Source: an uncultured bacterium
GTDB taxonomy: Bacteria > Auribacterota > Erginobacteria > Erginobacterales > DAOSXE01
Reading direction: 5' to 3'
DNA: 42,951 nucleotides
Assembly: GCA_964538495.1 (NCBI GenBank)
Contig: CAZIEA010000004.1
Coordinates: forward strand, 4,262 to 47,212
This document shows positions 1 to 32,259 of the stretch, piece by piece. Numbering within the stretch: the stretch's first letter is position 1; each line of letters opens with the position of its first letter. A model generated the notes under the pieces. That model saw only the letters and a program-made list of their open reading frames with translations, did no database searches and was not told the DNA's origin. A program made the translations under genes and the position numbers.

Positions 1-3000
1 AACATCCGACATTAGTGGGGGCGGTGTTGTCGATGATGAAGCGCCCGCTCGCGCTCGCCACCGCCGGGTCGGCGTCGTCGGAAACCCGGACCTGGTAGGT
101 GCTCCCGTCCGGGTAGGCGGAGGTGTCCCAGCCAGGCCAGGTGAGGGTGTCCCAGGCCACTCCGGAGGCGATGGCGAGCCAGGAAGTCCCGTTGGTGGCA
201 TAGTCCAGGCTGACGGTGTCGCCCCCGCCCCAGCCCTCCCCGATGGCCAGCCAGGACAAATCGTGCGCCCCGCTCCACTTCTCGGCCCCGAAGGCGCCCC
301 CGTAAGGGGTGATCAGGAAGAGGGAGTCGAGCGAGGAGCGCGAGGCCTCTTCCATCCCCCCGTAGGCCCCCTGGTTGACCCTCTGCCCGTTGGGGAAGGT
401 TTCCTCCCCGTAGTCGTCGTAGGGGCTGCCGGAGTTGAGGGCGGGGCTGTCGGAAGCGTCGGCGGCCCAACTCCCGAAGTGGTAGGACCCCTCGGTGCTT
501 CGGGGATGGAAATCGTCGTCGGCCCCATGCTTTCCGCCTAAAATTCCATCCGCTCCGGGCGGGTCCGCGAAGAGCGGATCCGCGCTCAGGCTGTGTTGGT
601 CCTGGCGGCTGGCAATTTGCCAGTCGGTTAAAGTAGCCCGGGGAAGCCCCCAGAATCCAACCCCGCCTCCCCCGGTGACATAGAGGTTATTGAAGTTGGA
701 AAACTGGCTTGAGGTCGAGATGAAGTAGAGACCGTAGACGCTTGTGCTCTCTGCCCAGACCGTATTGTTTTTTACCGTGCATCCCGGCGCGTTGATAGAG
801 AGTTCGTAACTGGAGTTTCCATAAAGCGTGTTGTTGGCTATGACGCTTGGGCTTCCCGCGAAGGCGGCCCCCCCGCCCGAGTTGCCGTAAATCAGATTGC
901 GCTTGAAAACCGAGGACGAGGTTGAAAAGGAAACTCCGGTTCGCTCGTTGGAGTATATGGCATTCCCGGAAACCTCTGCCGAATTGGAGCCGGCGGCCGC
1001 CAAACCGAAGTGGTTGAGGAATATGGCATTCCCGTCCACGGAGAGGCCCGGGCAATTTGCCGCTTGCAAGCCGGAGTGAGTGCTCCCCGGGGCCGGGTAT
1101 CCGTAATTCATGCCTATCAGGTTCCCGGCAACGGTTAGGGAAACACAATCGTCAAAGATGATACCGTGGGTAATATTTCCAGTTATGGAGTTATCACGAA
1201 CGACTACCTGAGAGCCCCCTTCTCCCCTGATTCCCGCCCCTCCTCCGCCCACTCCTCCGGCGGAACTCTGCCCGTTCCAGGATACTTCGGATTCTCTGAT
1301 CGCTACGCCTTGAACTTGTTCCATCCTTAACCCGTAGTCCAAAGCGGCCGCCAAGGTTATTCCCGCCAACTCAAGGTAGCTGGTTCGATTCAAGTAGATT
1401 CCGGTATTTGCCTGTCCCATTCCGGAGAGAAGAGAGCGGTTGGAGGACCCGGTCAGGAAGATCGACCCGGCCGGGCTCCCGGAGTCGGGGAGCCCGATCT
1501 CGACCGCGGTCGCCAGGGGATATATTCCGGTATCAATATAGACGGTGTCGCCCGGTTCCAGGTCCACGAGGTCTATGAGATTCTTCAAAGTCCGCTTGGG
1601 TCGGGAGGGGAGGGCCCCGCTGTAGGAGTCGCTTCCCGTGGTGGTGGTATAAACGTCGTCCAGGACCCCGGTGTCGTTGACCCAGTAGTTAATCCCGGGG
1701 GCGCCGGGGGAGCGGGAGGCTTGGTAGGTGTTGCCGTAAGCTCCCAGGTTGATCCTGCCTCCCTTGGGGGAGGTTTCGTAGGGGCAGGGGAAAGCCGGGT
1801 CCCCGGCGTCGATACCGGGCGAGGTCAGGAGATCGCTGTCGGTCCAATTGGCCCAACTCACCCAGCGTCCGGCCGGGCTGAGCAGGTGGTAGTCGGAACC
1901 AGCCGCGGCAAAGAGCGGGTCAACGCTCAGGCTGTTGGCGTCCTGCAGGGCCGCCCCCTGCCAGGAAGCCAGGTCGGGGGCGTCCCCGCCCCAGTAGCCC
2001 AGTACCGCCGGGGCGGGCCCAAGGAGGTTGTTGTAATCGGAAAGGAAGCCGTTTTCGCTCCCCGCGTCCACGTAGACCCCATAGGCCCCAGCGGCCACGG
2101 CCCAAAGGATGTTGTTGCGCAGATAGCTGTGGGGGGCGTTCAGGCAGAAAACTTCCCCCAGGGTGTTGTTATAGGAGGTGACGTTGACTACCCGGTTCCC
2201 CTCGCCCCCGGACAAACTTGCTCCCGCCCCGGAATTGCCGTCGAGGACGAAATTGAACAGGGTATTGGCGTTGCCGGTGACCTGGATCCCGTCGCCCCCG
2301 TGATTCCAGGAGCGGCCCCGGCGGACGGTGTTGTTGTCCCCGGAAACCAGCAACCCCGCCCCGGTGGCCCGGGTGAAGGAGATATTGTCCAGTTCGACAT
2401 AATCTCCTTCCAGGAGCAGGCAGTTCTCGAAGAGGTTGCCCGCGTCCAGGATCACGCCTGCCCCGGTTCCGGCGATCCGGACCGGGTAGTAGGCCGAGCC
2501 CGAATCCGGGGCGGCTACGGTCAGGGGGGCGGCCAGGACATAGGTCCCGGCATTGACGTAGACGGTGTCGCCCGGCTCGAGGTCCCGGTTGGCCAGGATC
2601 CAGCGTAGGCCGGTGGTGGCGCTTTCGATATTGGTTGCCCGCCAGACCGCGGAGGTGGAAAAGACCCCGTAACCGTCGGTGTCGGCGGTGAACCCGCAGA
2701 ACGGGCTTACGTTTTCGATCTCGTCCCGGGCCTTGACCCGCCAGTAGTAGGTGCTTCCGGCGGCGAGATTGGGCGCCCACATGCTCCAAGCGATCCATCC
2801 CGAGTTAATCAACCCGGAGGTGAAAGCGGGCGAATCGGCGACCTGGAAATAGTAGGGGAGGGGATGGAGCCCGACCAGGGCGTCCAGGGCAGTCAGCGCG
2901 CGCAGGGGGACATAGGAAGGCAGCCCTGTTTCCCCGTCTTCAGGGAGGAAGACCCCGACGTTGGCGGGGGGGGTGTTGTCGATGGTGAAGGTTCCGCTTC

Positions 3001-6000
3001 CCGCTCTCAGCCCGCCCGGCTCGCTCACCAAGATCTGGTAACTGTTTCCGTCGGCCACCGAGATGGTGCTCCAGTCGGGGTAGATCTGGGTGGGATAAGT
3101 TTCGGTGGAGATGGTGAAAAAGGCCGAACCGTCGGTGGTGTACTCCACCACCAGGAGATCCCCCGGGACCCAATCTTCCCCCACCGCCAGCCAGCGGATG
3201 TTCTGGAGTCCGTTCCACTTTTCCCCTCCCACCGGTTCCACCATGGCCAGGGTCTTGGTGCTGGCCAGGGAGGCCTGGTAGGTGCCCCCGTAGGCCCCGA
3301 TGTTGATGCGGCCGCCGTTGGGCTCGGGCTCCGGGGTATAGTCGCTTCCGGCGGGATGGAAGACCCGGGTCCCGGCCGGGTAGGAGCCGTCCACGCCGGT
3401 GGCGCCGACCAGGAGGTCCCCGCTCTTCCCGGTATAGGAGATGAAATCGCCCGCGATGTCGGTGGTATCAAGCTGGTCGGGAAAGTTGGTCGCGTCGGTT
3501 AATTCCAGGAAGGTCGAAGCGGAAGTGACGGGCTGGGCCAGGTAGGAGTCGGCGCTGTAGATCTGGCCCAGGTTCAGGCCGGGGCTGGCGTTGGTGTCGG
3601 CGCTCCAGAGCCCCTCGTGGTAGCTCCCCAGCGGGCTCTGGAGGTGGAAGTCTATCCCGGGGGCGACGAAAACCGGGTTGAGGTTGAGGCTGGCCCCGTC
3701 CTGCCCGCTGGCCGCCCGCCAGAGGTCGAAGGTGGACCGTTTCCCCCCCCAGTAGCCGATGTCCGCTCCGCCGGTGGCATAGAGAATATTGTAGTTGGAG
3801 GAAATGCCGATGCCGGTCGCGCCCGCATAGAAAGCGTAATTTCCCGTCTGGTGGGCCCAGAGGACGTTGTTGACGACGAGACTGCGGTTCGAAACGTTGG
3901 AGACGCTGAGTTCGCCCCCGTTTTTATAGCAAGTGTTGCTGATGATTCTCCCGTCCGGGCAGGAGCCGACCAGTATAATTCCATAGCCAGCGTTTCCGTG
4001 GACGGTATTGTGAGAGACCGAAGGGCCGGTCGTGATGTTGATGGAAATCCCCGCGTTCGAGTTTGCGCGGAGGGTATTTCCCGTTATGATGGCGCGGCTG
4101 CATTGGTACAGGTAAAAGCCGTTGATGTTTTCCCGAGCGGTGTTGTTTCTGAAGGTCCCCGACGAAACCTGCCAGGCGTATAACCCGTTTACCGCGTTGG
4201 CGTAAAAGAGGTTTTCGCTAATCAGGTTTGCCCCGGAAAGGTTGTAGAGATACGCTCCCGTTCCCAGATTGGCAAAAGAGGTGTTCCCCCGGAAGGTCGA
4301 GGAGTTCGGGTTGAAGAGATGAAATCCGTTGCTGCTGTTGTGTTCGGAGCGGTTCCCCTCTAAAAGCGATCCCGTGCCTCCGGAAAGGTAAACTCCTGCG
4401 CCGTAGTTATAGGAGAAAGAGTTTTTGCTCAAGACGACGGAGGAAGAACTCCCGGAAAACCCGTTTGACCCGCTGCCCCTGATTACGGAATCAGCCAGGG
4501 AACAGTTGGAGGAACTGGTTATGGAAACGGCATTGGCGGAAGCGTTGAATATCCAAAGCCGGTCGAGGTTGATGAAGCCCTTCCCTGAGATGGAAATGCA
4601 GGTTGGGACCACGCCCTCGATATCCAGGATCGAGGTATTGGGGGAACCGGCGATGGTGATCGGCTGTCCCGCCGTTCCCGCGGCCGGAATGCTTATAGTG
4701 GAGGTGACCGGGTAAAGTCCGGTGTCGAGATAGACCGTGTCCCCCGGCAGCATCGTGTAATTGGCAAAGACCGCTCCCAGGGAGTCCAGGGGGGAAGATG
4801 GATTCAGCCCGTCGTGGTCAGGCCAGGGGAGGCCCCCGGTGGAACAGTAGTAGTCCCACTCGGTGTCGGCGTCGTTGACATAAAAGTTGCGCCCGGCCAC
4901 TCCCGGGGAACGGGAGGCCTGCACGGTGTTGCCGTAGGCCCCCAGGTTGATCCGGCCGCCGTTGGGACCCGATTCCAGGGCGTAGGTGGAGAAGGGGTTG
5001 CCCCGGTCCACCCCGGGGGAGGTCTGGGTGTCGAGGGCCCAGGAAACCCCGTTCCAGCGCCCGCCCGCGCTCAGGAGGTGAAAATCGTCCGCCCCCGGCG
5101 CGAAGAGGGGATCCCGGCTCAAGCCGCTTTGGTCCTGTAAACTGGCCCCGGTCCACTCCGAGAACGTGGCCAGGGTCTCGGAGTTCCAGTAGCCGATCAA
5201 ACCGCCGGAGTCGGCGTAGAGGTCGTTGTAGTCGGAAGAGAATTCCACCTGGCTCGCGCTTTCCACATAGAGGGCGACTTTTTCCGCCCCCGTAGCCCAG
5301 AGGATGTTGTTGAGGAGCCCGCAGTGAGTGGAGCCGACCGGGTGGTAAGGGGCGGGGGGGATGTCGTCTGCGAGAAAGACTTCCTGCGTCCCGTTGCGGG
5401 CGCAGGAGTTGTTTTCGATGACGGAGTAATGAGAGGCGAAAAGGTGGATTCCGGCCAGGGAGTTGTCGTAAACCCGCATGTTCCGGATGGTGGTGTAGTC
5501 TCCGGTGACCTCAATCCCGTCGCCCCCGTTGGAGAAACTCGCCCCGTACTGCAGGCTGTTGTGGTCCCCGGAGATAAGCACGCCGCTGGAGACGGCGTTG
5601 GTGAAGGCGAAGTTCTCCACCTGGTAGTAATCGCCGCTGACGGTCAAACAGTGGTCGTGAATTCCCCCGGCGTCGAGCAGAACCTCGCCACCGTAGCCGG
5701 TGATCCGGACCGGGGCCTCCTCGGAGCCCTGGTCGGCGGGGCCGAACTCGAGCGGGGAGGAGAGGCTGTAAGCCCCGGCGTCCACATAGACGATGTCCCC
5801 GGGGTTGAGTTCGACATTGTCCAGAATCCAGCGCAAGCCCACGGTCTCGGACTCAATGTCGAGGGCGTGGTAAACCCCTAAGGTTCGGAATGACCAGTAG
5901 GTTCCGGGCGCGTCGGCGTCCCCGCAGAAGCCGCGCTCGTTGACGGGGTCGGCGCTGTCGCGGGCGTTGACCCGCCAGTAGTAGGTGGTGTTGGGGGTGA

Positions 6001-9000
6001 GGGCCGGGTGCCAGGTGGGCAGTTCCCGCCAGCCCGAGTTCTGCACGGCCGGTGAGTTGAAAAGCGGGGAGGTGTCGATCTGGAAGTAGTAGGGCTCGGT
6101 ATTGAGTCCGGCGGGCGAATCGGAGGCAATGAGAGCCGTCAGGGTGGTGGAGACGGGTTCCCGGGGACTCCCGTCGGCGGGAAGGCGGCAGCCGACATTG
6201 ATGGGAGGGGTATTGTCCACGATGAAGAAGCCGCTGATGTCTTCGGTAAAGAAAGCCGGTCCGCCGGGAGAGGAGATCTTGACGCGGTAGTCGGTGTTGT
6301 CGCCGGCGGCCGACAAGGTGTTCCAGCTCGAGTAGGTTCCGGTGATGTAGGAGAGACCGGAGGTGATTTCGAAGAAGGAAACTCCGTTCGTGGTGTATTC
6401 CAGGCGCACCGTGTCGGCGGGGAGCCAGCCGTCCCCGTGGGAGGACCAGGCAATCTCGTGGCTCCGGCTCCACTTCTCGGTCCCCCAGGGGCTGCCCAGG
6501 GGAGAGGAGAGGGAGAGAGTCTTCAGGCCGGATCGGGAGGCCTCGGAGGTGTTCCCATAGGTCCCGATGTTTATTCTCCCCCCGTTGGGGGAGAGTTCCA
6601 GGGAATAGTCGTTATCCGGGTTGCCCTTGTTCAGGCCGGGGCTGTTGACCGCGTCCACGACCCATTTTCCGTTCAGGAACCTTCCTTCCGTGCTCCGGAG
6701 GTGGAAATCCCCGCCGGCGGGGTCGTAGAAAAGTGGATTGGCGGAGACTCCGTGGCCGTCTTGTCTGCTGGCGTTGCGCCAGGCCTCGAAAGTGGATCGA
6801 GCCGCTCCCCAGAAGGCCAGGTCGGCCCCGCTCAGGACGTAATAGAGGTTGTAATCGGCGGTGTGGCCGTGGGCCGAGGGACTGGGGGTTTGGAAGTAAA
6901 GCCCGGTATTTCCCGCTCCCTCGACCCAGAAGATGTTGTTGGAAAACTCCGTGTTGTAGGTGCTGTTGATTACGTACACGGCCCGGGTCGTATTCCGGTA
7001 GAAGACATTGTTCCTGATTTGCAGGTTATTGCAGGCGGTCAGGTAGATCCCGATGCCGGTTATTTCCCGGAGCAGGTTGTTGGCCAGCAGGCAGTCATTC
7101 GAGGTGTCGAGCGAGATGCCGGTATTCCCCGCGCAGGTGTTTCCGGAGACGGTTTGATTGTGGTTGCGGTAGAGCCGGATCCCGCTGGTGGCGTTGGCGG
7201 CGACTTGGTTGTTGATTATCGTGGCCGGCGACCAGTAACAGTAGATTCCGCTTCCGCCGTTAGAGAGGCAGGAGTTGTCCTGGATGAGATGGCCGCCGCC
7301 GCCCGAGTAAATGTATATCCCCTGCCCGGAGTTTTCCGAGACGGTGTTCCCCTTGATTTGCGCGGTCGCCCCCAGGTAAAAGTAAATGCCGTGGCTCTGG
7401 TTATCCTGGACTATGTTCTCCTTGAGTTCGGGATAGTCCGTGCTCTGGTTGCAGTAAATCCCGGCGCCTTTGTTGAGGAGGACCTGTGTGTCGCGGATTA
7501 GCGTGCGCTTGGACTCGGAAACGTAGATGCCGTTGTCCCCGGAAGTGGTGACGCGGCAGCCGGAAATGGACAGATAGTCCGACCGGTAGACAGTAACTCC
7601 CGCCTGCCCCGCGTTGATGAACTGAAACCCGTTCAGGGATACGTAAGGGGCGGAGCTTACCCCGAGGCAGTAAGCCAGGGTGCCGCCGCCGTCGAGAACG
7701 CTGCCTTCCGGAGAACCGGTCAGGGTAATCGGATTGTCGGCGCTGCCCGTCCCCCTGATGATCAGCAGGGCCGACGGCGTGTAAAGGCCGGTGTCCACGA
7801 AGACCGAGTCTCCCGCGGTCAGGGTGTAGTGATCCAGCACCGCCTCCACGGAGTCGAGCGGGCTGGCGGGGCTCAAGCCGTTGTGGGCGGGCCAGGGGAG
7901 GCCGGAGGTGGAGCAGAAGTAATCGTATTCGACGGAAGAATCGTTGACGTAGAAGTTGCGCCCGGTCTTGCCCGGGGCGCGGGAGGCTCCCGGGGTGTTG
8001 CCGTAGGCGCCCAGGTTGACCCTGCCCCCGTTGGGGGCGGTCTCCAGGCCGTAAGGGGAAGCGGGGTCCCCCCGGTCCAGCCCCGGGGAGTTGCTCCCGT
8101 CCGCGCTCCAGCCGAAACCGGGTTTCCAGCTTCCGGTGGTGCTCTGGAGCCGGTAGTTGCCGCCCCCGACGAAGAGGGGGTTGGCACTGATGCTGTCGGC
8201 GTCTCCCCCGGAGGCCCCGGTCCAGGCCGCGAAAGCGGCTTGGGTGGCGGAATTCCAGTAGCCGACCGAGGCGGGGGCGGTGGCAAAAAGGTCGTTGTAG
8301 TCGGAATCGAAGCCGGCCTGGCTCTCGGGTTCGACGAAGATCGCGATCTGCCCCCCGGTCCCGGTTGCCCAGGCGATGTTGTTGCGCAGCACGGCGTAGC
8401 TGGAGCCGTTCAAGCCGGTGTCTTCCAGGTGGATTTCCCGGGTTCCGTTATTGGCGCAGGTGTTGTTGGTCAGTTCGGAGGAGTAGCTGGAAATCAGGCG
8501 GATACCGGAGAGAGTGTTGTTGTGGACAAGCATATTGCGGATGATGGTGTAGTCGCCGCTGGTCTCGATTCCAGAGCCGCCGTTCAGGAAAGACCTTCCT
8601 CCCTGGAGGGTGACGTGGTCGCCCTCGATTCGGATGCCGCTGTCGGTGGCGCCGGTAAAGGCGAAGTTCTCGACCTGGAACCAGTCCCCGGTCACCCGCA
8701 GGCAGTTGAGGGCGGTCCCGTTGCCGTCCAGGAGGACTTCCCCGTTCAAGCCCACGATCCGGACCGGGGAACCCTCCGCCCCCTCGTCGGCGGGGGAGAG
8801 GAGCATCGGCTCGCTCAGGGTGTAGCTTCCCGGGGCGACATAGACGATATCCCCCTGGGAAAGATCGTGGTTCTGCAGGATCCAGCGCAAGCCGTCGGTG
8901 GTCGCGGTGGCTTCGCTCGGCTCCACCGTGAGGGCGTGGTAGATACTTTGGGTCCGGAAGTAGCGGTAGGTCCCCGGAGAAGTGGTTTCCGCCTGGAACT

Positions 9001-11335
9001 CGCTCACGTTGGGCGGGTCGCAATCATCTCTTCCCCGGACCTGCCAGTAGTAGGTGGTGTTGGAACTCAGATTTACGGTCCAAAGGTTGTTGACGATCCA
9101 GCCGGAGGTGAGCAGGTCGGCCGAGGCGAAGCTGGGGTCGGTGTCCACTCGGAAGTAGTAGGGTTGGCTGTTGAGCCCGGCCGGGGAGTCGTTGATTTCC
9201 CGGGCTACCAGGGTGGTAAGGCGGGAGACTCCCACCGCCCCGTCGGCCGGGCTGGAGCATCCGACATTGGCGGGAGGGGTATTGTCCGCCGTCATGATTC
9301 CGCTCCGGATCTCGGCGGCCCGGGGGGAAGAGCCGGCGCTGTGCTCGAACCGGATCCGGCCCGTCCCGGAATCGGAACTGGAAGCCGTGTTCCATTCGTA
9401 GGGGGATGAATCCCAGGCGATTCCGCTGGCCAGGGAGATCCAGCTCACCGAGTCGGTGGAATAGGAGATGGATAAGGTATCCGCTCCCGTCCAGCCGTCC
9501 CCGAAAGTCCGCCAGGAAATATCGTGAACCCCGCTCCACTTCTCCCCGGCCAGGGGGTGGCCCAGGGGGGAGTCCAGAAAAAGACTGCGCCGGCTGGATT
9601 TGGAAGCCTCCGGGGTGTTCGCATAAGCGCCTATGTTTACCCTCCCCCCGTTCGGGTCCGGTTCCCAACTGAAGTCCGCGCTGGCCGGCTGGACCACCAG
9701 GGCGCTGGTGGCGTGGGCGAACGCCGCGCCGGTGCACCCGACCAGGGAACTCCCGGAAATTCCGGTATAGCCGATGAAATCTCCTTCCACTTCCACCCAA
9801 TTCCGGCTGGTCGCGAAACCTACGGAACTGGAGAGCGGAATAATCGTGGTTTTGGGGTTTACTGCCCCGGTTAGGGCGGCCTCGGCCAGGCCGGCGAACC
9901 CGGCATTTAAGGCCGGGCTATCCTCGCTGTCCTCATACCAGGAGCCTTCCGCGTATCTGCCTTCGGTGCTCTGGAGATGAAAATCATACCCGGCTGGGTC
10001 GAAGAAGAGCGGGTCGCCGGTGAAGCTGTGGCCGTCCAGCCCGCTGCCTAATATCCAACTCCTTAAATCGGAGTAAGATATGGTTTGTTTCCAGACCCCG
10101 ACTATAGCCCCCCCGATGGGGTTGATCAGGTTGAAGTCGGAAATGCAGTCGCGCTTGTCGGAATTGATGTCGTTATACTTGAACGCGAACTTGCCGGACC
10201 CATCGGGTTGAATGATGTTTCCGAAGACTCGGACTGAGGCGGTGTTGTCGTAAAAATAAATTCCCGACCCTCTTTCCAGGACGTTTTGCGTGACGAGGAC
10301 GTATTTGGGATAGTAAAGGGCTATGCACCCTGTCTCAGCCACGATAACCGTCCTGGAAATCACGATATTTTCGCCTTGGGATATCACGGCCCCCGCCGTG
10401 TTCCCGATAAGCGCGCACAGGTCGATGTGAACATTGTTGGAAAGAGAGGTGCTGATTCCCCTGGTGTTATTCCGGGCCGAACTGTATTCGATCCTGATAT
10501 TGTTTGAATTCGCGAGGGCGATCCCATCCTCGGCGTTTCCCGTTGCCGTCAGGGCGTAAAGCGCGCAGTAGGGGTTTGCCTGGAGGCGGATCCCGTGTGC
10601 GGGAGATGACTGGGCCGTGAAATGCGCCAGTTCCAGGTAGTAGCTTCCGTTAAAATGCAGGCAGGAACTTGAAGAAGGCAGATTTTCTCCTGAAAATACG
10701 GTCCCGTTCGGCGACCCGGCAAAACACAGGTTGGCGGAAGCACCGCCGTGGTCGGATGACGTGAGATAAATCCGCTCGGGCAACGCCCAATACCCGGTGT
10801 CTACGTAAACCACGTCGCCCGTCCCCAGGACGTAACCGTCGATGATGGACTGCAGGTTCCACTTGGGGGCGGCGGGGGAAAGCCCGGAGTTGGCGTTGTC
10901 GCCGATGGCGGTGCAATAGACGTCGTCGGTGAGGGAGGTATCGTTGACGAAGTAGGCGGTCCCGATTACCGGGTTATTGAGCGCGAAATACCAGCCGCTC
11001 TGGTCGGAAACCCCGGGGTCGCCGGTTTTGCTGATCCGCACCTTGTAGTTGCCGTTGGGGAGGGTGGTGGTGTACCAGCGGAATTTTTGTAAATCGTAGG
11101 GGAGATTGACTGCGATCCGGGTGTAGGAAAATTCGTCCGTGGTCCATTCCAGGTCCACCTGGTCCCCGGCGGACCAGCCCGAGGTGGAGGTGCTCCAGGA
11201 GATCTCGGCCGCCCCGCGCCAGGAGAGCCCGTCGGTGTTGGGGGAAATCAGCGCCACCGTCTGGGCGGCGGCGAGCCCGCCCGTCAGGAGCAGGAGCAGA
11301 ACCGCGAAAACGGCCCTCGAACCGTGGTTCTTCAA
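1..11335 (-). CDS. giant secreted right-handed parallel beta-helix repeat protein (at least 3,778 aa; 3' end lies beyond the left edge)
   Basis: Absent from the ORF track because it has no stop in the window. The minus frame whose codon first bases fall at position = 1 mod 3 is the only frame with no listed ORF fragment across 1-11.3 kb. Hand translation from TTG at 11335 (GAAAGGA 5 nt upstream) gives MKNHGSRAVFAVLLLLLTGGLAAAQTV, a signal peptide. Downstream are repeated motifs: IDNTPPxNVGC, TTYYWxVxARD, LRWILxNxxLxPGDxVYV, NFYVND...GDxVYxDTGxY, PbH1-like N-rich turns, and DPLF..DFHLxS..SPGxDxG..PNGGRINLGAYGNT. Frame spot-checked by hand at 11221-11335, 6181-6240 and 5761-5880. Confidence 0.85.
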   Translation of the reverse strand, partial: MKNHGSRAVFAVLLLLLTGGLAAAQTVALISPNTDGLSWRGAAEISWSTSTSGWSAGDQVDLEWTTDEFSYTRIAVNLPYDLQKFRWYTTTLPNGNYKVRISKTGDPGVSDQSGWYFALNNPVIGTAYFVNDTSLTDDVYCTAIGDNANSGLSPAAPKWNLQSIIDGYVLGTGDVVYVDTGYWALPERIYLTSSDHGGASANLCFAGSPNGTVFSGENLPSSSSCLHFNGSYYLELAHFTAQSSPAHGIRLQANPYCALYALTATGNAEDGIALANSNNIRIEYSSARNNTRGISTSLSNNVHIDLCALIGNTAGAVISQGENIVISRTVIVAETGCIALYYPKYVLVTQNVLERGSGIYFYDNTASVRVFGNIIQPDGSGKFAFKYNDINSDKRDCISDFNLINPIGGAIVGVWKQTISYSDLRSWILGSGLDGHSFTGDPLFFDPAGYDFHLQSTEGRYAEGSWYEDSEDSPALNAGFAGLAEAALTGAVNPKTTIIPLSSSVGFATSRNWVEVEGDFIGYTGISGSSLVGCTGAAFAHATSALVVQPASADFSWEPDPNGGRVNIGAYANTPEASKSSRRSLFLDSPLGHPLAGEKWSGVHDISWRTFGDGWTGADTLSISYSTDSVSWISLASGIAWDSSPYEWNTASSSDSGTGRIRFEHSAGSSPRAAEIRSGIMTADNTPPANVGCSSPADGAVGVSRLTTLVAREINDSPAGLNSQPYYFRVDTDPSFASADLLTSGWIVNNLWTVNLSSNTTYYWQVRGRDDCDPPNVSEFQAETTSPGTYRYFRTQSIYHALTVEPSEATATTDGLRWILQNHDLSQGDIVYVAPGSYTLSEPMLLSPADEGAEGSPVRIVGLNGEVLLDGNGTALNCLRVTGDWFQVENFAFTGATDSGIRIEGDHVTLQGGRSFLNGGSGIETSGDYTIIRNMLVHNNTLSGIRLISSYSSELTNNTCANNGTREIHLEDTGLNGSSYAVLRNNIAWATGTGGQIAIFVEPESQAGFDSDYNDLFATAPASVGYWNSATQAAFAAWTGASGGDADSISANPLFVGGGNYRLQSTTGSWKPGFGWSADGSNSPGLDRGDPASPYGLETAPNGGRVNLGAYGNTPGASRAPGKTGRNFYVNDSSVEYDYFCSTSGLPWPAHNGLSPASPLDSVEAVLDHYTLTAGDSVFVDTGLYTPSALLIIRGTGSADNPITLTGSPEGSVLDGGGTLAYCLGVSSAPYVSLNGFQFINAGQAGVTVYRSDYLSISGCRVTTSGDNGIYVSESKRTLIRDTQVLLNKGAGIYCNQSTDYPELKENIVQDNQSHGIYFYLGATAQIKGNTVSENSGQGIYIYSGGGGHLIQDNSCLSNGGSGIYCYWSPATIINNQVAANATSGIRLYRNHNQTVSGNTCAGNTGISLDTSNDCLLANNLLREITGIGIYLTACNNLQIRNNVFYRNTTRAVYVINSTYNTEFSNNIFWVEGAGNTGLYFQTPSPSAHGHTADYNLYYVLSGADLAFWGAARSTFEAWRNASRQDGHGVSANPLFYDPAGGDFHLRSTEGRFLNGKWVVDAVNSPGLNKGNPDNDYSLELSPNGGRINIGTYGNTSEASRSGLKTLSLSSPLGSPWGTEKWSRSHEIAWSSHGDGWLPADTVRLEYTTNGVSFFEITSGLSYITGTYSSWNTLSAAGDNTDYRVKISSPGGPAFFTEDISGFFIVDNTPPINVGCRLPADGSPREPVSTTLTALIASDSPAGLNTEPYYFQIDTSPLFNSPAVQNSGWRELPTWHPALTPNTTYYWRVNARDSADPVNERGFCGDADAPGTYWSFRTLGVYHALDIESETVGLRWILDNVELNPGDIVYVDAGAYSLSSPLEFGPADQGSEEAPVRITGYGGEVLLDAGGIHDHCLTVSGDYYQVENFAFTNAVSSGVLISGDHNSLQYGASFSNGGDGIEVTGDYTTIRNMRVYDNSLAGIHLFASHYSVIENNSCARNGTQEVFLADDIPPAPYHPVGSTHCGLLNNILWATGAEKVALYVESASQVEFSSDYNDLYADSGGLIGYWNSETLATFSEWTGASLQDQSGLSRDPLFAPGADDFHLLSAGGRWNGVSWALDTQTSPGVDRGNPFSTYALESGPNGGRINLGAYGNTVQASRSPGVAGRNFYVNDADTEWDYYCSTGGLPWPDHDGLNPSSPLDSLGAVFANYTMLPGDTVYLDTGLYPVTSTISIPAAGTAGQPITIAGSPNTSILDIEGVVPTCISISGKGFINLDRLWIFNASANAVSITSSSNCSLADSVIRGSGSNGFSGSSSSVVLSKNSFSYNYGAGVYLSGGTGSLLEGNRSEHNSSNGFHLFNPNSSTFRGNTSFANLGTGAYLYNLSGANLISENLFYANAVNGLYAWQVSSGTFRNNTARENINGFYLYQCSRAIITGNTLRANSNAGISINITTGPSVSHNTVHGNAGYGIILVGSCPDGRIISNTCYKNGGELSVSNVSNRSLVVNNVLWAHQTGNYAFYAGATGIGISSNYNILYATGGADIGYWGGKRSTFDLWRAASGQDGASLNLNPVFVAPGIDFHLQSPLGSYHEGLWSADTNASPGLNLGQIYSADSYLAQPVTSASTFLELTDATNFPDQLDTTDIAGDFISYTGKSGDLLVGATGVDGSYPAGTRVFHPAGSDYTPEPEPNGGRINIGAYGGTYQASLASTKTLAMVEPVGGEKWNGLQNIRWLAVGEDWVPGDLLVVEYTTDGSAFFTISTETYPTQIYPDWSTISVADGNSYQILVSEPGGLRAGSGTFTIDNTPPANVGVFLPEDGETGLPSYVPLRALTALDALVGLHPLPYYFQVADSPAFTSGLINSGWIAWSMWAPNLAAGSTYYWRVKARDEIENVSPFCGFTADTDGYGVFSTSAVWRATNIESATTGLRWILANRDLEPGDTVYVNAGTYVLAAPLTVAAPDSGSAYYPVRIAGTGAGVILDAGNLFENCLLLEGDYVELDNISFTRATGAGLLVSGDNNTVRRGRSWNHGGDGIQVTGNANTLFNFVLDGNSGAGASLSGGEGNRVVNVTSYNNTLGEVFCLNAPHSYLRNNILWAVAAGAYGVYVDAGSENGFLSDYNNLLGPAPAVLGYWGGDAPDLASWQGAALQDANSLSVDPLFAAAGSDYHLLSPAGRWVSWANWTDSDLLTSPGIDAGDPAFPCPYETSPKGGRINLGAYGNTYQASRSPGAPGINYWVNDTGVLDDVYTTTTGSDSYSGALPSRPKRTLKNLIDLVDLEPGDTVYIDTGIYPLATAVEIGLPDSGSPAGSIFLTGSSNRSLLSGMGQANTGIYLNRTSYLELAGITLAAALDYGLRMEQVQGVAIRESEVSWNGQSSAGGVGGGGAGIRGEGGSQVVVRDNSITGNITHGIIFDDCVSLTVAGNLIGMNYGYPAPGSTHSGLQAANCPGLSVDGNAIFLNHFGLAAAGSNSAEVSGNAIYSNERTGVSFSTSSSVFKRNLIYGNSGGGAAFAGSPSVIANNTLYGNSSYELSINAPGCTVKNNTVWAESTSVYGLYFISTSSQFSNFNNLYVTGGGGVGFWGLPRATLTDWQIASRQDQHSLSADPLFADPPGADGILGGKHGADDDFHPRSTEGSYHFGSWAADASDSPALNSGSPYDDYGEETFPNGQRVNQGAYGGMEEASRSSLDSLFLITPYGGAFGAEKWSGAHDLSWLAIGEGWGGGDTVSLDYATNGTSWLAIASGVAWDTLTWPGWDTSAYPDGSTYQVRVSDDADPAVASASGRFIIDNTAPTNVGC

Positions 11336-11437
11336 GGTGATCCTTTCGCTGGGGGCCGGTGGTTTTCCGGCGCCGATTTGTCCCGGATTGGAGCGGTTTA
11401 AATACGGCCTGATTCGGTTACAGCCTTCCTTATTATG

Positions 11438-11466
11438 TTTATACCCGATAACCGTTCCTAAATCAA
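11438..11466 (-). promoter_or_regulatory. candidate sigma70-type promoter for the giant gene
   Basis: On the minus strand: TTGATT (11466-11461), a 17-nt spacer, then TATAAA (11443-11438), about 100 nt upstream of the TTG start. Sequence match only. Confidence 0.25.
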
Positions 11467-11594
11467 CTGACAAAAGGGCCTTTTTTCCCCCTCCGGCGGG
11501 ACTTGCGGGGTCCATCAGGCCCGGGCGCACTTCTCCTTATAAATTAGACTTCCTTCCCTGCCTCTTTGTTTAATCTATATGAACTGCCGCCGCA

Positions 11595-11831
11595 TTCACA
11601 TGTAGACATGTAGGGCATGTAGAAAATCAAATGCTGTCCACAGATTTCACAGATTTAAACTTCATGTTCTTCATGTCCTTCATGGTGAGAAAAGCAGGCT
11701 GAAGGAACTCACACCCCATACCCCATGCCTCATACCCCATTACACGGATTACTGATTACGGATTACGTTTGGTTTTCCTGATTCCTGACTCCTGTTTCCC
11801 GACCCTATGCTCTATGCCCTATGCTCTATGC
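11595..11831. repeat. mosaic of short tandem word repeats in the divergent intergenic region
   Basis: In order: CATGTAG x3 block (11595-11626), CACAGATTT x2 (11635-11656), TTCATGTYC x3 (11660-11685), GGCTGAAG, CATACCCC-type x3 (11712-11740), GGATTAC/TGATTAC x3 (11744-11767), TCCTGAY x3 (11775-11794), CTATGCYC x4 (11803-11831). The same words recur in at least 14 other intergenic regions of this window. Confidence 0.9.
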
Positions 11832-11870
11832 TTAAATGTAAGCGCTATCGCCAATTTTCCCATGACCGGC

Positions 11871-11876
11871 TATAAT
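11871..11876 (+). promoter_or_regulatory. perfect TATAAT hexamer 8 nt upstream of the ATG at 11885 (possible leaderless transcript)
   Basis: TATAAT lies at 11871-11876. No Shine-Dalgarno sequence between it and the ATG, and the -35 region is poor (TCGCCA). Confidence 0.2.
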
Positions 11877-11884
11877 TCCCCGAA

Positions 11885-13513: not shown

Positions 13514-13522
13514 GCGCTACGG

Positions 13523-13566
13523 TTCACATGTAGGCATGTAGAGCATGTAGCGCAACTACATGTGAA
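13523..13566. repeat. palindromic CATGTAG block just after the stop codon
   Basis: TTCACATGTAG-22 nt-CTACATGTGAA, with perfect 11-bp arms. Starts 10 nt after the stop at 13511-13513. Confidence 0.85.
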
Positions 13567-13573
13567 TTTATAC

Positions 13574-13602
13574 TTGACGTCGCCGGAGGGGAAAATTAGG
13601 AT
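13574..13602 (+). promoter_or_regulatory. candidate sigma70 promoter for the export operon
   Basis: TTGACG (13574-13579), a 17-nt spacer, TAGGAT (13597-13602), about 50 nt upstream of the ATG at 13654. Confidence 0.3.
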
Positions 13603-13653
13603 TCAGCATTCGGGCCCGGGCCATGTTTCTGCCTGGCCCGCGCCGAACCGAAA

Positions 13654-15125: not shown

Positions 15126-15280
15126 GCGGATCGCCGTTCCTACGGAACGGCTTGCAGTATCGTCACTCCTGGCGGAGTGACTTGCAGGATCGTCTCGACT
15201 GCGTCGAGACTTGTAGTATCGTCCCTCGCCTTGCTCGGGACTTGCGGTATCGCCGCTCCCTTGAGGGGAGCGGCTTGCAA
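15126..15280 (+). repeat. hairpin-unit array 1 (5 units, forward orientation)
   Basis: Units of 29-30 nt: head TTGYRGTATC followed by GCCGTTCC-tac-GGAACGGC, GTCACTCC-tggc-GGAGTGAC, GTCTCGAC-tgc-GTCGAGAC, GTCCC..GGGAC and GCCGCTCCC-ttga-GGGGAGCGGC. Begins 6 nt after the stop at 15120. Confidence 0.9.
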
Positions 15281-15330
15281 CTTTAGGCCTTATGCCCTAT
15301 GCTTTCATAGGCTGAAGGACCCGACGCTGC

Positions 15331-15566
15331 ATTCACATGTAGACATGTAGGACATGTAGAAAGGCTGAAGATTTTTTTCACAGTTTAACCGCGAATCCAA
15401 GGGCCACGGATCACGGATCACTGATTACGGATTACGATTTTCCCTGAACCCTGAACCCTGTATCCTGGGTTTCGACGGATTACGGATCACTGATTACGGA
15501 TTACGATTTTTCCTGAACCCAGACCCCTGAACGCAACCTACATGTTCTACATGTCTACATGTGAAT
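15331..15566. repeat. MITE-like 236-bp unit bounded by 29-nt inverted CATGTAG blocks
   Basis: ATTCACATGTAGACATGTAGGACATGTAG (15331-15359) matches the reverse complement of 15538-15566 at 28 of 29 positions. The interior holds only word repeats (GGCTGAAG, GGATYAC x8, CCTGAAC x4) and has no coding capacity. Confidence 0.8.
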
Positions 15567-15577
15567 AGGCGACGCGG

Positions 15578-18082: not shown

Positions 18083-18298
18083 TGCCTTGTGTGTTCCCCG
18101 GCCTTGTTGTTGTTATCGGAGTTCAGGCTGAAGGCTGAAGACTGAAGTCTGACGGCCCCGCCGCACCGATTGAACCGCGAATCTCGCGAATCCCCACAAA
18201 TCAAAGCGACGGATTACGGATCACTGATTACGGTTTGACCCTATGCTCTATGCCCTATGCTCTATGCTTAACAACGACAACGAATCGGGAACAAGAAC
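18083..18298. repeat. word-repeat mosaic including a 74-nt conserved module
   Basis: CCTTGTKGTT words, GGCTGAAG x4 (18125-18152), module 18160-18233 (70 of 74 identical to 23550-23623), CTATGCYC x4, then CGACAA words up to the ATG at 18299. Confidence 0.9.
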
Positions 18299-19424: not shown

Positions 19425-20159
19425 ATGTCCGTCATCATTCCCGCCCGGAACGAGGAGCATAATGTCGAAAAGACGTGCCGGGCCGTTGCCGGCGAATTCA
19501 AGGCCCATGGAATCGAAGACTGCGAAATACTCCTGGTAAACGATCACAGTTCGGACAAAACGCTCGAGACGCTCGCCCAGCTCAGCCGTTCGCTGCCGGG
19601 GGTGAGATACGTCGACAATGACGGCAGCCCCGGTTTCGGGATGGCGGTCCGCCTCGGGCTGGAGAAATCCCGCGGCGAAACGGTTTGCATCATGATGGCC
19701 GACCTCTCCGACTCGCCTTCCGACCTCCGCCGGTATTATGACGAGCTCCAGCGCGGGGCCGAGTGCGTGTTCGGCTCGCGTTTCATCAAGGGCTCCAGGA
19801 TATCCGGCTATCCTTTCCCCAAGTTGGTCTTGAACCGTTCGGTCAACTGGCTCATAAAACTGGTGTTCAAAATCCCCCATAATGACATTACCAATGCGTT
19901 CAAAGCCTATCGCCGCGAGGTTATTTCGGGAGTGAGCCCGCTCTTGTCGCACCATTTCAATTTGACGGTTGAGCTTCCCTTGAAAGCGATAGTCCGCGGC
20001 TACCGCTATACTACGGTTCCGATCTCATGGACTAACAGGGTGGAAGGGATTTCCAAACTGAAGATTAAGGAAATGGGCAGCCGCTACCTGTTCATCATCT
20101 TGTACGTTTGGCTGGAGAAACTTCTTTCGCGCGGCGATTACCGGCGACGGGGCGTGTAG
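19425..20159 (+). CDS. family 2 glycosyltransferase (polyprenol-phosphate sugar synthase-like)
   Basis: Start trimmed to the ATG at 19425 (MSVIIPARNEEHNV...LLVNDHSSD). C-terminal hydrophobic segment YLFIILYVWLEKLL. The TAG stop (20157-20159) lies inside the TGTAGTATC head of array 2. Confidence 0.8.
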   Translation: MSVIIPARNEEHNVEKTCRAVAGEFKAHGIEDCEILLVNDHSSDKTLETLAQLSRSLPGVRYVDNDGSPGFGMAVRLGLEKSRGETVCIMMADLSDSPSDLRRYYDELQRGAECVFGSRFIKGSRISGYPFPKLVLNRSVNWLIKLVFKIPHNDITNAFKAYRREVISGVSPLLSHHFNLTVELPLKAIVRGYRYTTVPISWTNRVEGISKLKIKEMGSRYLFIILYVWLEKLLSRGDYRRRGV

Positions 20160-20335
20160 TATCGTCGCTCCCGCGGAGCCGCATGTAGTATCGTCGCTCC
20201 TGCGGAGCGACTTGTAGTATCGTCGCTCCTGCGGAGCGACTTGTAGTATCGCCGCTTCTGCGAAGCGGCTTGCAGTATCGTCGCTCCTGCGGAGCGACTT
20301 GTAGTATCGCCGCTCCCCTGGAGCGGCTTGTAACA
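20157..20335 (+). repeat. hairpin-unit array 2 (6 units of 29 nt, forward)
   Basis: TTGTAGTATC followed by GTCGCTCC-tgc-GGAGCGAC (x3-4), GCCGCTTC-tgc-GAAGCGGC and GCCGCTCC-cct-GGAGCGGC. The period is a strict 29 nt. Confidence 0.95.
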
Positions 20336-20363
20336 GCAGCCTTAATTGTTGGATTATGGGGTC

Positions 20364-20756
20364 ATGAAATTCAAGTATGAGGAGCTCGAGATCTGGAAGG
20401 TGGCTCTGAACATGGCCAGGGTCGTTTTTGCGATATTGAAGAAATATCCGGACGACGAGAAATTCGGTCTGGTTTCTCAAGGCCGGAGGGCGGTGGTATC
20501 CATAGCCCTGAACATATCCGAGGGCAGCGGCAGGAAAACCAACAGGGATTTTTCGGTTTTCATCAACCGGGCATTATCTTCGTTGCAGGAGACGGATGCG
20601 GTTTTAAAGATCGGCCTGGCGATGCAGTACATCAGGGATGCCGACTACGCCGAGGCGGATCCTTTGTTGAAAGAAGAGTATTTCAAGTTGATTGCCTTCG
20701 ACAAAAAACTGCGTGAAGACCTTACATACGTGCGCGGCTACAGTTCCCTGAAGTAA
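20364..20756 (+). CDS. four-helix-bundle protein (23S rRNA intervening-sequence protein / Avd-like family)
   Basis: MKFKYEELEIWKVALNMARVVFAILKKYPDDEKFGLVSQGRRAVVSIALNISEGSGR...LSSLQETDAVLKI matches the family signature (ExW, QxRRAxxSIxxNIAEG) as I remember it. GC is visibly lower than in the neighbouring genes. Confidence 0.8.
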   Translation: MKFKYEELEIWKVALNMARVVFAILKKYPDDEKFGLVSQGRRAVVSIALNISEGSGRKTNRDFSVFINRALSSLQETDAVLKIGLAMQYIRDADYAEADPLLKEEYFKLIAFDKKLREDLTYVRGYSSLK

Positions 20757-20782: not shown

Positions 20783-20937
20783 TGCAAGGCCGCCGGAGGC
20801 GGCCGATACTACAAGCCCCGAGCGAAGCGAGCGGCGATACGACAAGTCCCGAGCAGGGCGAGGGACGATACGACAAGCCCCGACGCAAGTCGGGGCGATA
20901 CGGCAAGCCTTGAGCAGGGCGAGGGGCGATACGACAG
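20783..20937 (-). repeat. hairpin-unit array 4 (5 units, reverse orientation)
   Basis: Hairpin followed by GATACKACAAG, e.g. GGCCGCC-ggag-GCGGCC, GTCCCGAG-caggg-CGAGGGAC, GCCCCGAC-gcaa-GTCGGGGC. It is inverted relative to array 2 across the four-helix-bundle gene. Confidence 0.9.
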
Positions 20938-21813: not shown

Positions 21814-22218
21814 ATGTGTCTACTGTATAAAGAGGAGGTGTACAAGCTAATCGGTGCGGCCATGGAAGTTTATAACTTGCTGGGCAATGGGTTCTTGGAA
21901 TCCGTGTACCAGGAAGCTTTGGAATATGAGTTGGATTTGAGAGGAATCCCTTATAAAGCCCAAGAGATGTTGCAGATCAAGTATAAGGACAAGATGCTTG
22001 AACATGCCTATAAGGCGGATCTGGTTCTTATGGATAAAATTATCGTGGAATTGAAAGCTATGGAAAAATTAGGCAGGAATGAGAAGGCGCAGATCATTAA
22101 TTATCTCAAGGCAACCAACCTTGAATTAGGGGTGTTGATAAATTTTGGGGCTAAGAACGATCTCGAATGGAAGAGAATGATATTGTCAAAAAACATGCCG
22201 TTAGAACCGGAAGTATAG
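21814..22218 (+). CDS. GxxExxY protein (PD-(D/E)XK nuclease-like small protein)
   Basis: LGNGFLESVYQEALEYEL...YKADLVLMDKIIVELKAME...AQIINYLKATNLELGVLINFG carries the GxxExxY motif and a D..ExK core. Clearly AT-richer than the flanking cysD and cysN. Confidence 0.8.
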   Translation: MCLLYKEEVYKLIGAAMEVYNLLGNGFLESVYQEALEYELDLRGIPYKAQEMLQIKYKDKMLEHAYKADLVLMDKIIVELKAMEKLGRNEKAQIINYLKATNLELGVLINFGAKNDLEWKRMILSKNMPLEPEV

Positions 22219-23533: not shown

Positions 23534-23660
23534 GCAGGGCTTCAGCCCTGCCGCACTGATTGAACCGCGAATCTCGCGAATCCACACAAATCAAAGCGAC
23601 GGATTACTGATCACTGATCACGGATTACGTTGGTTCTCCTGAACCCTGAACCCTGAACCC
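23534..23660. repeat. hairpin plus 74-nt module plus CCTGAAC words
   Basis: GCAGGGC-ttca-GCCCTGC (23534-23551) sits 2 nt after the cysN stop and occurs inverted at 41035-41052. Module 23550-23623 duplicates 18160-18233. CCTGAAC x3 at 23638-23660. Confidence 0.9.
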
Positions 23661-25386: not shown

Positions 25387-25445
25387 AGGAAAAATTCGAA
25401 TTTGTTTCGAGTTTCGTCATTCGAATTTCGAATTTAAATCTGGAA
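25387..25445. repeat. TTCGAA-type palindromic word repeats
   Basis: AAATTCGAATTT, GTTTCGAGTTTCG and ATTCGAATTTCGAATTT. A related string occurs at 40750-40785. Confidence 0.8.
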
Positions 25446-28418: not shown

Positions 28419-28463
28419 AAATCCGTGAAATTTGCGGAAAGTAGTAAGCAAAAGGAGAATGAG

Positions 28464-31525: not shown

Positions 31526-31560
31526 CCATGCTTCGTGAACGCCATTCGGCGGGATTAGAT

Positions 31561-32229: not shown

Positions 32230-32259
32230 CACGGCCAATGAAATAAGCTTGGATTCCGG

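Follow-up and report, generated by a model that had tools for sequence, protein, structure and literature searches.

Bacterial interspersed mosaic elements (BIMEs) of Escherichia coli, Neisseria intergenic mosaic elements (NIMEs) and the BOX elements of Streptococcus pneumoniae are intergenic mosaics of modules that keep a preferred order while subsets and copy numbers vary. They lie beside palindromes of the repetitive extragenic palindromic (REP) type, preferentially downstream of genes, and their modules are unique motifs or palindromes of 20-150 bp. The foldback transposons of eukaryotes carry inverted arms of tandem short sub-repeats. Tandem heptamers were reportedly described in cyanobacteria by Mazel in 1990 as short tandemly repeated repetitive (STRR) sequences, for which CCCCAGT, TTGGTCA and CAACAGT are the canonical words. 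Intergenic tandem repeats of heptamers have been described in cyanobacteria, Xanthomonas and Beggiatoaceae (PMC4679880, PMC4692102), and heptamer simple sequence repeats (SSRs) are over-represented in many large GC-rich genomes according to Mrazek (2007), as cited in those two papers. Translational or other regulation has been proposed for such single-word repeats and is not established (PMC4679880; PMC4692102; bioRxiv 10.1101/2022.06.06.494920). Here we analyse a 42,951-nucleotide stretch of DNA from an uncultured bacterium (contig CAZIEA010000004.1, positions 4,262 to 47,212), referred to as the window, in which each block of tandem words between genes appears to be a different selection from a single composite repeat that is ordered and partly cyclic.

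A sequence-only reading of the window had proposed that 14 regions are built of tandem words, drawn in both orientations from a shared vocabulary and each repeated two to four times. Array detection bears this out for words of 6-9 nt: Tandem Repeats Finder detected arrays of period 6-10 in all 14 regions, direct reading agreed with it, and the 237-bp stretch at 11595-11831 does string eight words together. Thirteen of the 14 words named at that time were found by regular expression as at least two adjacent copies in the window, while the fourteenth, TTCGAA(A/T)T, forms only an imperfect array (25394-25435). We set 16 word families by regular expression, with about 15 words: A, RCTGAAG (single unit GGCTGAAG); B, CATGTAG; C, CGCAAAGR; D, CACAGATT; E, CTTCATGNN (CTTCATG); F, GGGTTCA, and F(rev), CCTGAAC; G, GGGATC-type hexamers; H, ACKGATT; I, CTATGCY; J, TYCTGAY, and J(rev), CAGGAWW; K, CGCGAATC; L, TTCGAA-type; M, CAYRCCCC; and P. 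The most diagnostic of the units is a 28-mer of fixed form, TTCACATGTAG-R-CATGTAG-RR-CATGTAG, rather than a free repeat; exact matches to this triple-CATGTAG motif (TTCACATGTAGRCATGTAGRRCATGTAG) number 10 in the window, where 100 shuffles predict 0.00. Statistics beyond the window come from a corpus of 572 kb of related DNA (121 sequences from about 10 assemblies), gathered by requiring the CATGTAG triplet, with gene calls from a simple open reading frame (ORF) caller based on GC content at third codon positions (GC3). The 16 expressions find more than 1,200 arrays in this corpus, compared with 0-6 per family in shuffles.

The expected enrichment of the words in intergenic DNA was also upheld. 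A dedicated detector placed all arrays of period 7-9 except one outside genes. Once gene calls are corrected, the non-coding share of the window is 3,694 bp (8.6%), of which the 14 word regions account for 2,222 bp (60%); together with neighbouring REP-like arrays of 29-31-bp units they account for 80%. Spacers longer than 100 bp consist of 67-99% repeat each, with the sole exception of 13514-13653 (31%), and spacers of about 30-70 bp have no repeat content. The intergenic DNA of this cluster is thus essentially repeats. The arrays share with heptamer SSRs and STRRs both the tandem head-to-tail arrangement of units of 5-11 nt beyond chance length and the strong intergenic enrichment.

The arrays do not follow one another freely. 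Array pairs within blocks of the corpus run along the series A-B-F-G-C-D-E-P-M-K-J-H-I-F(rev) in 676 cases and counter to it in 55, and the count remains about 293 to 55 when A and B, the families that split the cycle, are left out. Exceptions are mostly forward skips, as expected of deletion derivatives, and adjacent arrays are co-oriented 509:73. The transitions include A to B (77 of 101), C to D (21 of 34), D to E (43 of 97) and E to A (35 of 65, otherwise E to P); B is followed by C, F, A or D, F by G and then C, and K by J and then H or I. Unique linkers are conserved along with the words. The linker upstream of B, GGAAC-YGCCGCC-NCATTCA, is 70-90% conserved per position, and the majority of 136 oriented CATGTAG triplets carry this same linker upstream and one of a few continuations downstream. 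The earlier view that words are joined in varying order is contradicted by these counts.

Comparison of the window with itself indicates what is copied. Segments of 30-80 bp, comprising one to three arrays with their unique linkers, recur at 92-100% identity, which is at odds with the proposal of word-level shuffling as opposed to copies of one element. The segment 38750-38823 recurs at 37402-37475 (98.6% identical) and, on the minus strand, at 41026-40961; a K-H segment is shared by 18155-18233 and 23545-23623 (94% identical), and 11635-11694 recurs at 38832-38891. The order of variants within an array is also the same in distant copies: CCCTATGCTCTATGCCCTATGCTCTATGC occurs at four sites, and A arrays, whose copy number peaks at four, have a fixed G,G,A,G variant order (GGCTGAAG-GCTGAAG-ACTGAAG-GCTGAAG). 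Copy numbers are narrow, with three copies in 170 of 201 B arrays and 2-4 in other families. Independent slippage at each site cannot account for recurring segments, identical variant orders and narrow copy numbers; with the constrained order, co-orientation and shared linkers, these lead us to see in each block a subset of a single composite repeat with an order of its own. Intergenic subsets that vary, built from several modules in a preferred order, are also the hallmark of mosaic intergenic elements of the BIME/NIME type. The words show no obvious likeness to the E. coli or Neisseria modules. The words themselves resemble one another: E reversed is CATGAAG, close to B, which makes E almost the reverse complement of that word; A is RCTGAAG; further likenesses join D (CACAGATT) with H (CACGGATT/ACTGATT) and J (TCCTGAY) with F(rev) (CCCTGAA). 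The vocabulary therefore collapses to a few superfamilies, as expected of duplication, divergence and homogenisation within arrays.

The same vocabulary recurs in related contigs. A 28-mer scan of a genome collection found L001, which has the vocabulary, the linker and the variant order of the ACGGATT array in common with the window. The epimerase protein encoded on a Logan contig (L003) is 100% identical to that of the window, and that of a JGI contig (L006) falls in the same 90% cluster. L004 and L005 are syntenic, more distant loci (74-77% amino-acid identity, GC 49%) with spacers full of tandem words, some shared (AGGGTTC, CTTCATGTT, CACAGATT and TTACTGA) and others new. These two lower-GC relatives also carry regular tandem arrays of 55-58-bp units, with up to 7.9 copies at 97% identity (L004, 11749-12209, 13560-13858 and 15149-15336; L005, 11653-12049 and 14719-14986), in which a constant AAAGGGGCCGAGGTAGGGG linker is joined to a variable word triplet, as well as 32-bp palindromic arrays (AAAGTGACACAGACATTCCTGTCTGTGAGCCC). 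Such arrays are the same architecture in another dialect. Scanning metagenomes with the triplet returned 112 stretches, mostly from the same sample as L006, while viral contigs gave no match to the triplet that would point to phage carriage. The host lineage of the composite repeat is probably Competibacteraceae-like Gammaproteobacteria. The word is not confined to this lineage, since solo triplets occur in other genomes (L002/L054 and L035/L060) and an unrelated low-GC contig (L064, Ga0105052, GC 44%) contains a long plain (CATGTAGG)n microsatellite at 2090-2283.

The chains have a polarity that is set by the spacer. A and B arrays lie at a relative spacer position of 0.33 if plus and 0.68 if minus (p = 2.6e-18), and because this split is the same in tandem, divergent and convergent spacers it is not a transcript-level rule. 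Of 107 spacers with at least two core arrays, 96 contain a single chain, 10 contain two chains in plus-minus order and one is minus-plus-minus; none is minus-plus. Orientation switches are thus plus-minus in 11 cases and minus-plus in one, and paired chains meet tail to tail in mid-spacer. For single chains, the median distance from the head to the gene on its side is 26 nt (19 nt at stops), and that from the tail to the other gene is 49 nt. Heads face a stop codon in 66 cases and a start codon in 30, and array density is lowest in divergent, promoter-bearing spacers (5.0 per kb, compared with 7.3-7.9). This 3'-end preference and avoidance of divergent spacers resembles, by analogy, the pattern known for selfish repeats of the REP/BIME type. 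In three genes of the window the stop codon itself lies inside a block, as read directly from the sequence: those of gene 36432-37277 and ORF 41032-41784 are the TAG of the second CATGTAG unit, and that of gene 28425-29777 is a TAG in a CTATGC-type array. The composition of each block is given in Table 1, together with the REP-like arrays of the window.

Table 1. Word blocks and REP-like arrays in the window; letters are the word families defined in the text.
Position	Strand	Composition	Remarks
11595-11831	+	B-D-E-single A-M-H-J-I; CATGTAG x3 (11599-11622), CACAGATTT x2 (D), CTTCATGYY x3, one GGCTGAAG, CAYRCCCC x3-4, ACKGATT x3, TYCTGAY x3, CTATGCY x4	no significant fold (z -1.3); divergent spacer between giant minus-strand ORF and gene at 11885
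13523-13566	+	minimal unit, B triplet then short inverted CTACATGTGAA	begins 10 nt past stop codon
15151-15263	+	REP-like array, tandem 29-31-bp GTAG-headed palindromes (CTTGTAGTATCG head + 7-8-bp stem)
15288-15568		I - single A - linker - B(+) - K - H - F(rev) - H - F(rev) - B(-)
18083-18298	+	hexamer remnant - A x4 - K (CGCGAATC x2) - H x4 - I x4 - hexamer CGACAA	occupies 97% of kinase-epimerase spacer
20155-20332		REP-like array
20799-20936		REP-like array
23534-23660	+	GTAG-tagged hairpin GCAGGGCTTCAGCCCTGC - K x2 - H x4 - F(rev) (CCTGAAC x3)
24824-24918		REP-like array
24920-25116	+	I x3 - A x4 - linker - B x3 - TTCGAA words - J x5 - F(rev)	follows REP-like array
25387-25445		imperfect array of TTCGAA-type words (family L)	Tandem Repeats Finder and reading
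29774-29824	-	I(rev) x4, then B(rev) x2 + TGAAT	REP-like array next
29830-29950		REP-like array
31479-31525	-	J(rev) (CAGGAWW x5)	fills 49-bp spacer up to next start codon
37259-37475	+	B - TTCGAA words - hexamers - I(rev) - single A - linker - B - C (CGCAAAGA x3)
37516-37647		REP-like array
37648-37665	+	F(rev) (CCTGAAC x2)	beside end of minus-strand epimerase gene
38750-38902	+	canonical chain B-C-D-E-A	begins 20 nt from start codon of divergent gene
40745-41052	-	reverse chain: TTCGAA words, 18-bp repeat, I, hexamers, C(rev) x4, B(rev) x3, hairpin GCAGGGCTGAAGCCCTGC
41765-42095	+	B - F (GGGTTCA x3) - G (GGGATC-type hexamers) - C - ~90 bp - J - I - F(rev)	~90 bp common to 37447-37525

REP-like arrays and word chains share spacers, often in the order gene stop, REP array, CTATGC array, A, B. 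The arrays of 29-31 bp and the GCAGGGCTTCAGCCCTGC hairpins fit the description of REPs as imperfect palindromes of 20-40 bp with a GTAG or CGTC tag, which the word arrays, being direct repeats, do not. A third palindrome type, (GTCGTAGC)GCAGGGCTTCAGCCCTGC, occurs at 23534-23551 and 41035-41052 and also in L074 and L091; its loop and half-stem read GGCTGAAG, which is word A, and it can replace the A array before the triplet or the K array. No gene for a REP-associated tyrosine transposase (RAYT) lies inside the window. In L006, the place of the A-K-H-I chain at 18083-18298 is taken by a RAYT (Y1_Tnp) gene between GC-rich REP hairpin doublets, the whole being nested within 33-nt inverted arms of hexamer words that are 91-96% complementary. 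A second RAYT gene, in another close relative, L091, is flanked by REP hairpins alone. A REP/RAYT link is a weak lead, resting on the GTAG inside CATGTAG, on the similarity of that word to the REP head CTTGTAG (a single mismatch apart) and on the nesting in L006.

Comparison between strains shows how the blocks change. The genes of the window and L006 are 92-94% identical; gene-proximal arrays are kept (CCTGAAC x3 before the GT87 gene, CCCTATGCTCTATGCCCTATGC after it and CGACAA hexamers before the epimerase gene), and spacer interiors are wholly different. Between L004 and L005, three spacers have identities of 0.87-0.95, compared with 0.79-0.88 at flanking third codon positions, and two others are essentially replaced. 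The three aligned spacers differ by indels of a single heptamer, of a double unit (26 bp), of a module (50 bp) and of a linker with its array (52 bp), so change occurs at two levels, that of single units and that of whole modules. That some spacers persist may reflect either constraint or their homogenisation by other copies.

On balance, we think it probable that the blocks are a non-autonomous, largely selfish mosaic repeat, copied as multi-module segments and reshaped by slippage and indels. The module is a short tandem array (a word of 6-9 nt in 2-4 copies) with a conserved unique linker, in an ordered and polar series whose core reads (RCTGAAG)n-GGAAC-YGCCGCC-NCATTCA-(CATGTAG)3-...-(CGCAAAGR)n, then CACAGATT n-fold and CTTCATGNN n-fold, repeating. 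Individual spacers carry subsets resembling internal deletions or duplications of this series, and multi-module segments rather than single words recur between spacers, with blocks altering after copying by gain or loss of units and whole modules. Chains begin within about 20 nt of a gene boundary, with stop codons preferred, and run into the spacer. Spacers may have been expanded by selfish or neutral DNA, tolerated best downstream of genes, as with REP/BIME; its spread might involve recombination or gene conversion from spacer to spacer, or an enzyme acting in trans. The sole candidate enzyme seen, the lineage's RAYT transposases of the Y1 type, is weakly linked to the words.

Several points weigh against this interpretation. 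Neither defined element termini nor a target-site duplication nor an autonomous master copy was found, and the inverted triplet pairs are few (7, compared with 36 direct, of 43 neighbouring pairs) and enclose varied content. The RAYT genes are adjoined by GC-rich REP hairpins, not directly by word chains. The retention of gene-proximal arrays between strains, and of three L004/L005 spacers at or above the level of third codon positions, would also fit a selected function. Selection of the corpus on the CATGTAG triplet biases the statistics that involve B, the gene boundaries of the corpus rest on the simple GC3-based caller, and the label Candidatus Competibacteraceae comes from the record title of one metagenome-assembled genome, L001.

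Among the alternatives, we regard as unlikely, though deserving of most attention, a cis-regulatory code in which the arrays are multivalent sites for DNA- or RNA-binding proteins controlling transcription, mRNA processing or translation of the flanking genes, as has been proposed for the TAACTGA repeats of Beggiatoaceae and the heptamer repeats of Nostoc (PMC4679880; bioRxiv 10.1101/2022.06.06.494920). Besides the conserved spacers and narrow copy numbers, such a code would account for arrays that adjoin stop and start codons, three stop codons lying inside blocks, and for sense-strand CCTGAAC, which is conserved between strains and has a relative position of 0.85, a short way upstream of the start codon. 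Where both flanking genes point the same way, 80-90% of the arrays of families A, C, E, H and P run with transcription (A 42:7, E 28:6). This bias follows, however, from the fixed array order together with the preference of heads for stop codons, and orientation symmetrically tracks whichever gene boundary is closer, and does so for either gene direction, which points to an architecture at the level of DNA rather than transcript. More than 15 word families would require many binders, and interiors are swapped wholesale between strains whose genes are 92-94% identical. No specificity was seen in the functions of flanking genes; sigma-70 promoters and intrinsic terminators are not enriched in the blocks, with a weak terminator-like sequence at 40752-40772 as the sole match inside a block; and a search of the whole window against Rfam at gathering thresholds gave no family, only two sub-threshold matches (E 0.3-0.8) in 36.9-42.3 kb.

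The near-reverse-complement pairs among the words (B/E, F/F(rev) and B/B(rev)) allow part of the chain to form an imperfect hairpin. Minimum-energy folds join the B and E triplets in each of the 29 B...E segments, with a mean z of -2.2 (only -1.5 and -1.75 for the two window examples), and the B:E duplex has an energy of -20.3 kcal/mol compared with -10.1 +/- 3.0 for controls. Two blocks of the window fold back strongly: 15264-15577 through B and B(rev) (z -5.7), and 41765-42095 (z -4.6), where F pairs with F(rev) over 25-nt arms of 96% complementarity. Inverted arms of at least 14 nt are found in none of the other seven of the nine large window spacers, and word-rich spacers fold only slightly better than word-free ones (z -1.5 vs -0.9). 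Hairpin potential is a partial, not a defining, feature.

These pairs bear on a second alternative, which we consider doubtful and rank below the regulatory code: a transposon of the foldback type or a miniature inverted-repeat transposable element (MITE), with the triple CATGTAG (TTCACATGTAG...) as terminal inverted repeats offering multiple transposase-binding sites, a variable interior, and most copies as one-ended decay products. The 28-nt triplet is the most conserved part (more than 90% per position), the TTCA ends of inverted triplets point outward (6:1 and 11:1), and 15331-15359 and 15538-15566, the two B triplets of one block, form a 29-nt inverted repeat that is 97% complementary. 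A minimal version of 44 bp lies at 13523-13566, and the word arrays of L006 are outer inverted arms around a RAYT gene. Yet in most copies an A array and linker lie beyond the supposed terminus, which means that no fixed end is marked by the triplet. Chain heads are B, A, D or K arrays, what the inverted pairs enclose varies, and strain differences are replacements rather than clean insertions, with no target-site duplication at the solo or minimal copies inspected. A transposase associated with the triplet was not found, and the scarcity of inverted arms and the small folding difference described above also tell against such an element.

A bolder version of the functional idea, which we would rate as distinctly improbable, makes the repeat a genome-wide punctuation cassette: ordered, polar word arrays recognised by protein or RNA, installed by gene ends and kept by dedicated machinery, which might be an enzyme of the HUH/RAYT type acting on GTAG-containing words. 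If true, the cassette would supply stop codons, mark operon boundaries and set the fate of intercistronic mRNA, and would constitute a multi-word regulatory grammar without a described bacterial counterpart. Independent microsatellites, arising in situ by local polymerase slippage that favours 7-nt units and involving no copying between loci, are very hard to credit. The over-representation of heptamer SSRs in GC-rich genomes cited above and the gain or loss of a single unit between L004 and L005 agree with slippage, but the same words, variant orders, unique linkers and neighbour order occur at more than 100 loci, with copies bounded at 2-4. An assembly artefact of chimeric low-complexity joins can be dismissed: although the short-read contig L003 breaks inside the block at 18241-18298, as repeats often cause, identical modules occur in NCBI, JGI, ENA and Logan assemblies of different samples (more than 100 contigs, about 10 independent assemblies or samples) and orthologous arrays in the window and L006.

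Other candidate identities were tried for the arrays and rejected. A uniform MITE model is weakened by variable contents and ends that are not fixed, and a model of whole-spacer foldback fits just two of the nine large window spacers, with a weak shift in z-score. No four-run motif for G-quadruplex formation, as for GGGNATC repeats, is present in the window arrays; stop codons occur in nearly all six frames of the blocks, excluding protein coding. A sigma-54 or extracytoplasmic function (ECF) sigma factor promoter in the A-B linker (GG-N10-GC, GGAAC) matched by eye just 4 of 6 and 3 of 5 consensus positions. The restriction-site-like sequences ACATGT, TTCGAA, TCGCGA and CTGAAG lie inside words, yet just 3-4 of about 15 words have a 6-bp palindrome. 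As for a clustered regularly interspaced short palindromic repeat (CRISPR) array, the units between linkers are repeated words common to loci, and a comparison of window ORFs with Pfam gave no Cas domain.

The genes around the blocks form a polysaccharide-synthesis cluster, with PMT_2, Poly_export/TPR, Wzz/GNVR, a tyrosine-kinase-like ATPase, an SDR epimerase, GT2, CysD/CysN, GT87, a sulfatase, a phosphodiesterase, Wzy, methyltransferases and a UDP-GlcNAc 2-epimerase. No tRNA or tmRNA gene was found in the window. At its left, a giant minus-strand ORF (<1-11530, more than 3,800 aa, GC3 0.80) extends past the window edge; in the 843 residues scanned it has Beta_helix, NosD and Disaggr_assoc domains, and L005 has a 6,021-aa protein at the equivalent place. 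Two mini-genes on the plus strand encode a four-helix-bundle protein, 23S_rRNA_IVP (20346-20756; PF05635, 5.8e-26), with REP-like arrays on both sides, and a PDDEXK_3 nuclease-fold protein (21814-22218; PF13366, 3e-41) between CysD and CysN, and more copies of both lie in the same cluster of L004, L005 and L007. Cyanobacteria and Bacteroidetes, the phyla in which heptamer repeats are known, likewise have these two families in abundance. The interval 31500-35400 is a low-GC island (50-57% vs about 60%) of about 4 kb, compared with about 1.9 kb for the equivalent interval in L053; its genes, for a methyltransferase, a PMT_2 protein and two GT2 proteins, are separated by short spacers that lack word blocks, and the island looks like a recently acquired cassette. 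An unannotated ORF of 84 aa (25132-25386, plus strand) lies between two word blocks and has a good Shine-Dalgarno sequence (AAGGAGAG), a hydrophobic N-terminus and no Pfam match, while several genes downstream of blocks have no obvious Shine-Dalgarno sequence. Predicted promoters lie in unique DNA between block and gene: for example, TCGCCA-17-TATAAT spans 11848-11876 (site 11848-11884), and its perfect TATAAT stops only 8 nt short of the ATG at 11885, which suggests an mRNA with a very short leader or none at all.

Intergenic heptamer repeats have been known for decades in cyanobacteria, Xanthomonas and giant sulfur bacteria. The present case is unusually rich: about 15 words, with a measurable grammar, polarity towards gene ends and turnover at the level of strains, make up most of the intergenic DNA. 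It makes origin (copying vs slippage), mobility (REP/RAYT) and function (at 3' ends or between cistrons) testable from existing wastewater metagenomes and metatranscriptomes. In practical terms, the blocks break short-read assemblies of Competibacteraceae and mislead ORF callers, and they could serve as strain markers.

The words had not been recognised as a described repeat class. That holds for the composite, which was not found described for this lineage (a literature search found no paper on such repeats in Competibacter), and does not hold for the general class of heptamer repeats (PMC4679880, PMC4692102). The nearest known kinds are STRR and other heptamer repeats together with BIME/NIME mosaics, and the system is better described as a mosaic, polar composite than as free shuffling. 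With the heptamer SSRs, such as the GGGNATC repeats (Rehm 2015, PMC4692102), it shares tandem 7-nt units, few copies per array and several families per genome, as well as a location that is about 90% intergenic, often tens of nucleotides from the upstream ORF and kept across related strains (PMC4692102). Those are single-word arrays, in other words and another host lineage, and the window arrays have no G-quadruplex motif; the present chains link 15 words or more, with preferred order, conserved linkers and polarity, and make up most of the intergenic DNA. None of the STRR words given at the outset has a counterpart among the word families found. The TAACTGA repeats of marine Beggiatoaceae (MacGregor 2015, PMC4679880) likewise have a gammaproteobacterial host and a heptamer in 2-6 copies in intergenic DNA near starts, and near-variants occur here (ACTGATT/TTACTGA, e.g. 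TTACTGATCACTGA at 23604, and TTACTGA x3.6 in L005). Exact TAACTGA tandems are present neither in the window, where the best match has two mismatches, nor in 120 loci. Moreover, the TAACTGA system has essentially one word, with related heptamers seldom repeated, set in the forward direction just upstream of start codons (PMC4679880), a placement that the chains described here, with heads mostly at stop codons, do not share.

With REP/REPIN-RAYT systems (PMC3116915, PMC3733652), the blocks have in common GTAG palindromes in the same spacers, RAYT genes in L006 and L091 and some hairpin word pairs, and the REP head and word B differ by the single mismatch noted above. The word arrays differ in being mostly direct repeats, and are at most an outer layer around RAYT genes. 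The likeness to foldback transposons, an analogy from another domain of life, extends to 15288-15568, 41765-42095 and the L006 spacer, a minority of blocks. BIME, NIME and BOX elements, compared by description only, resemble the chains in their modular order, whereas their modules are not short tandem arrays.

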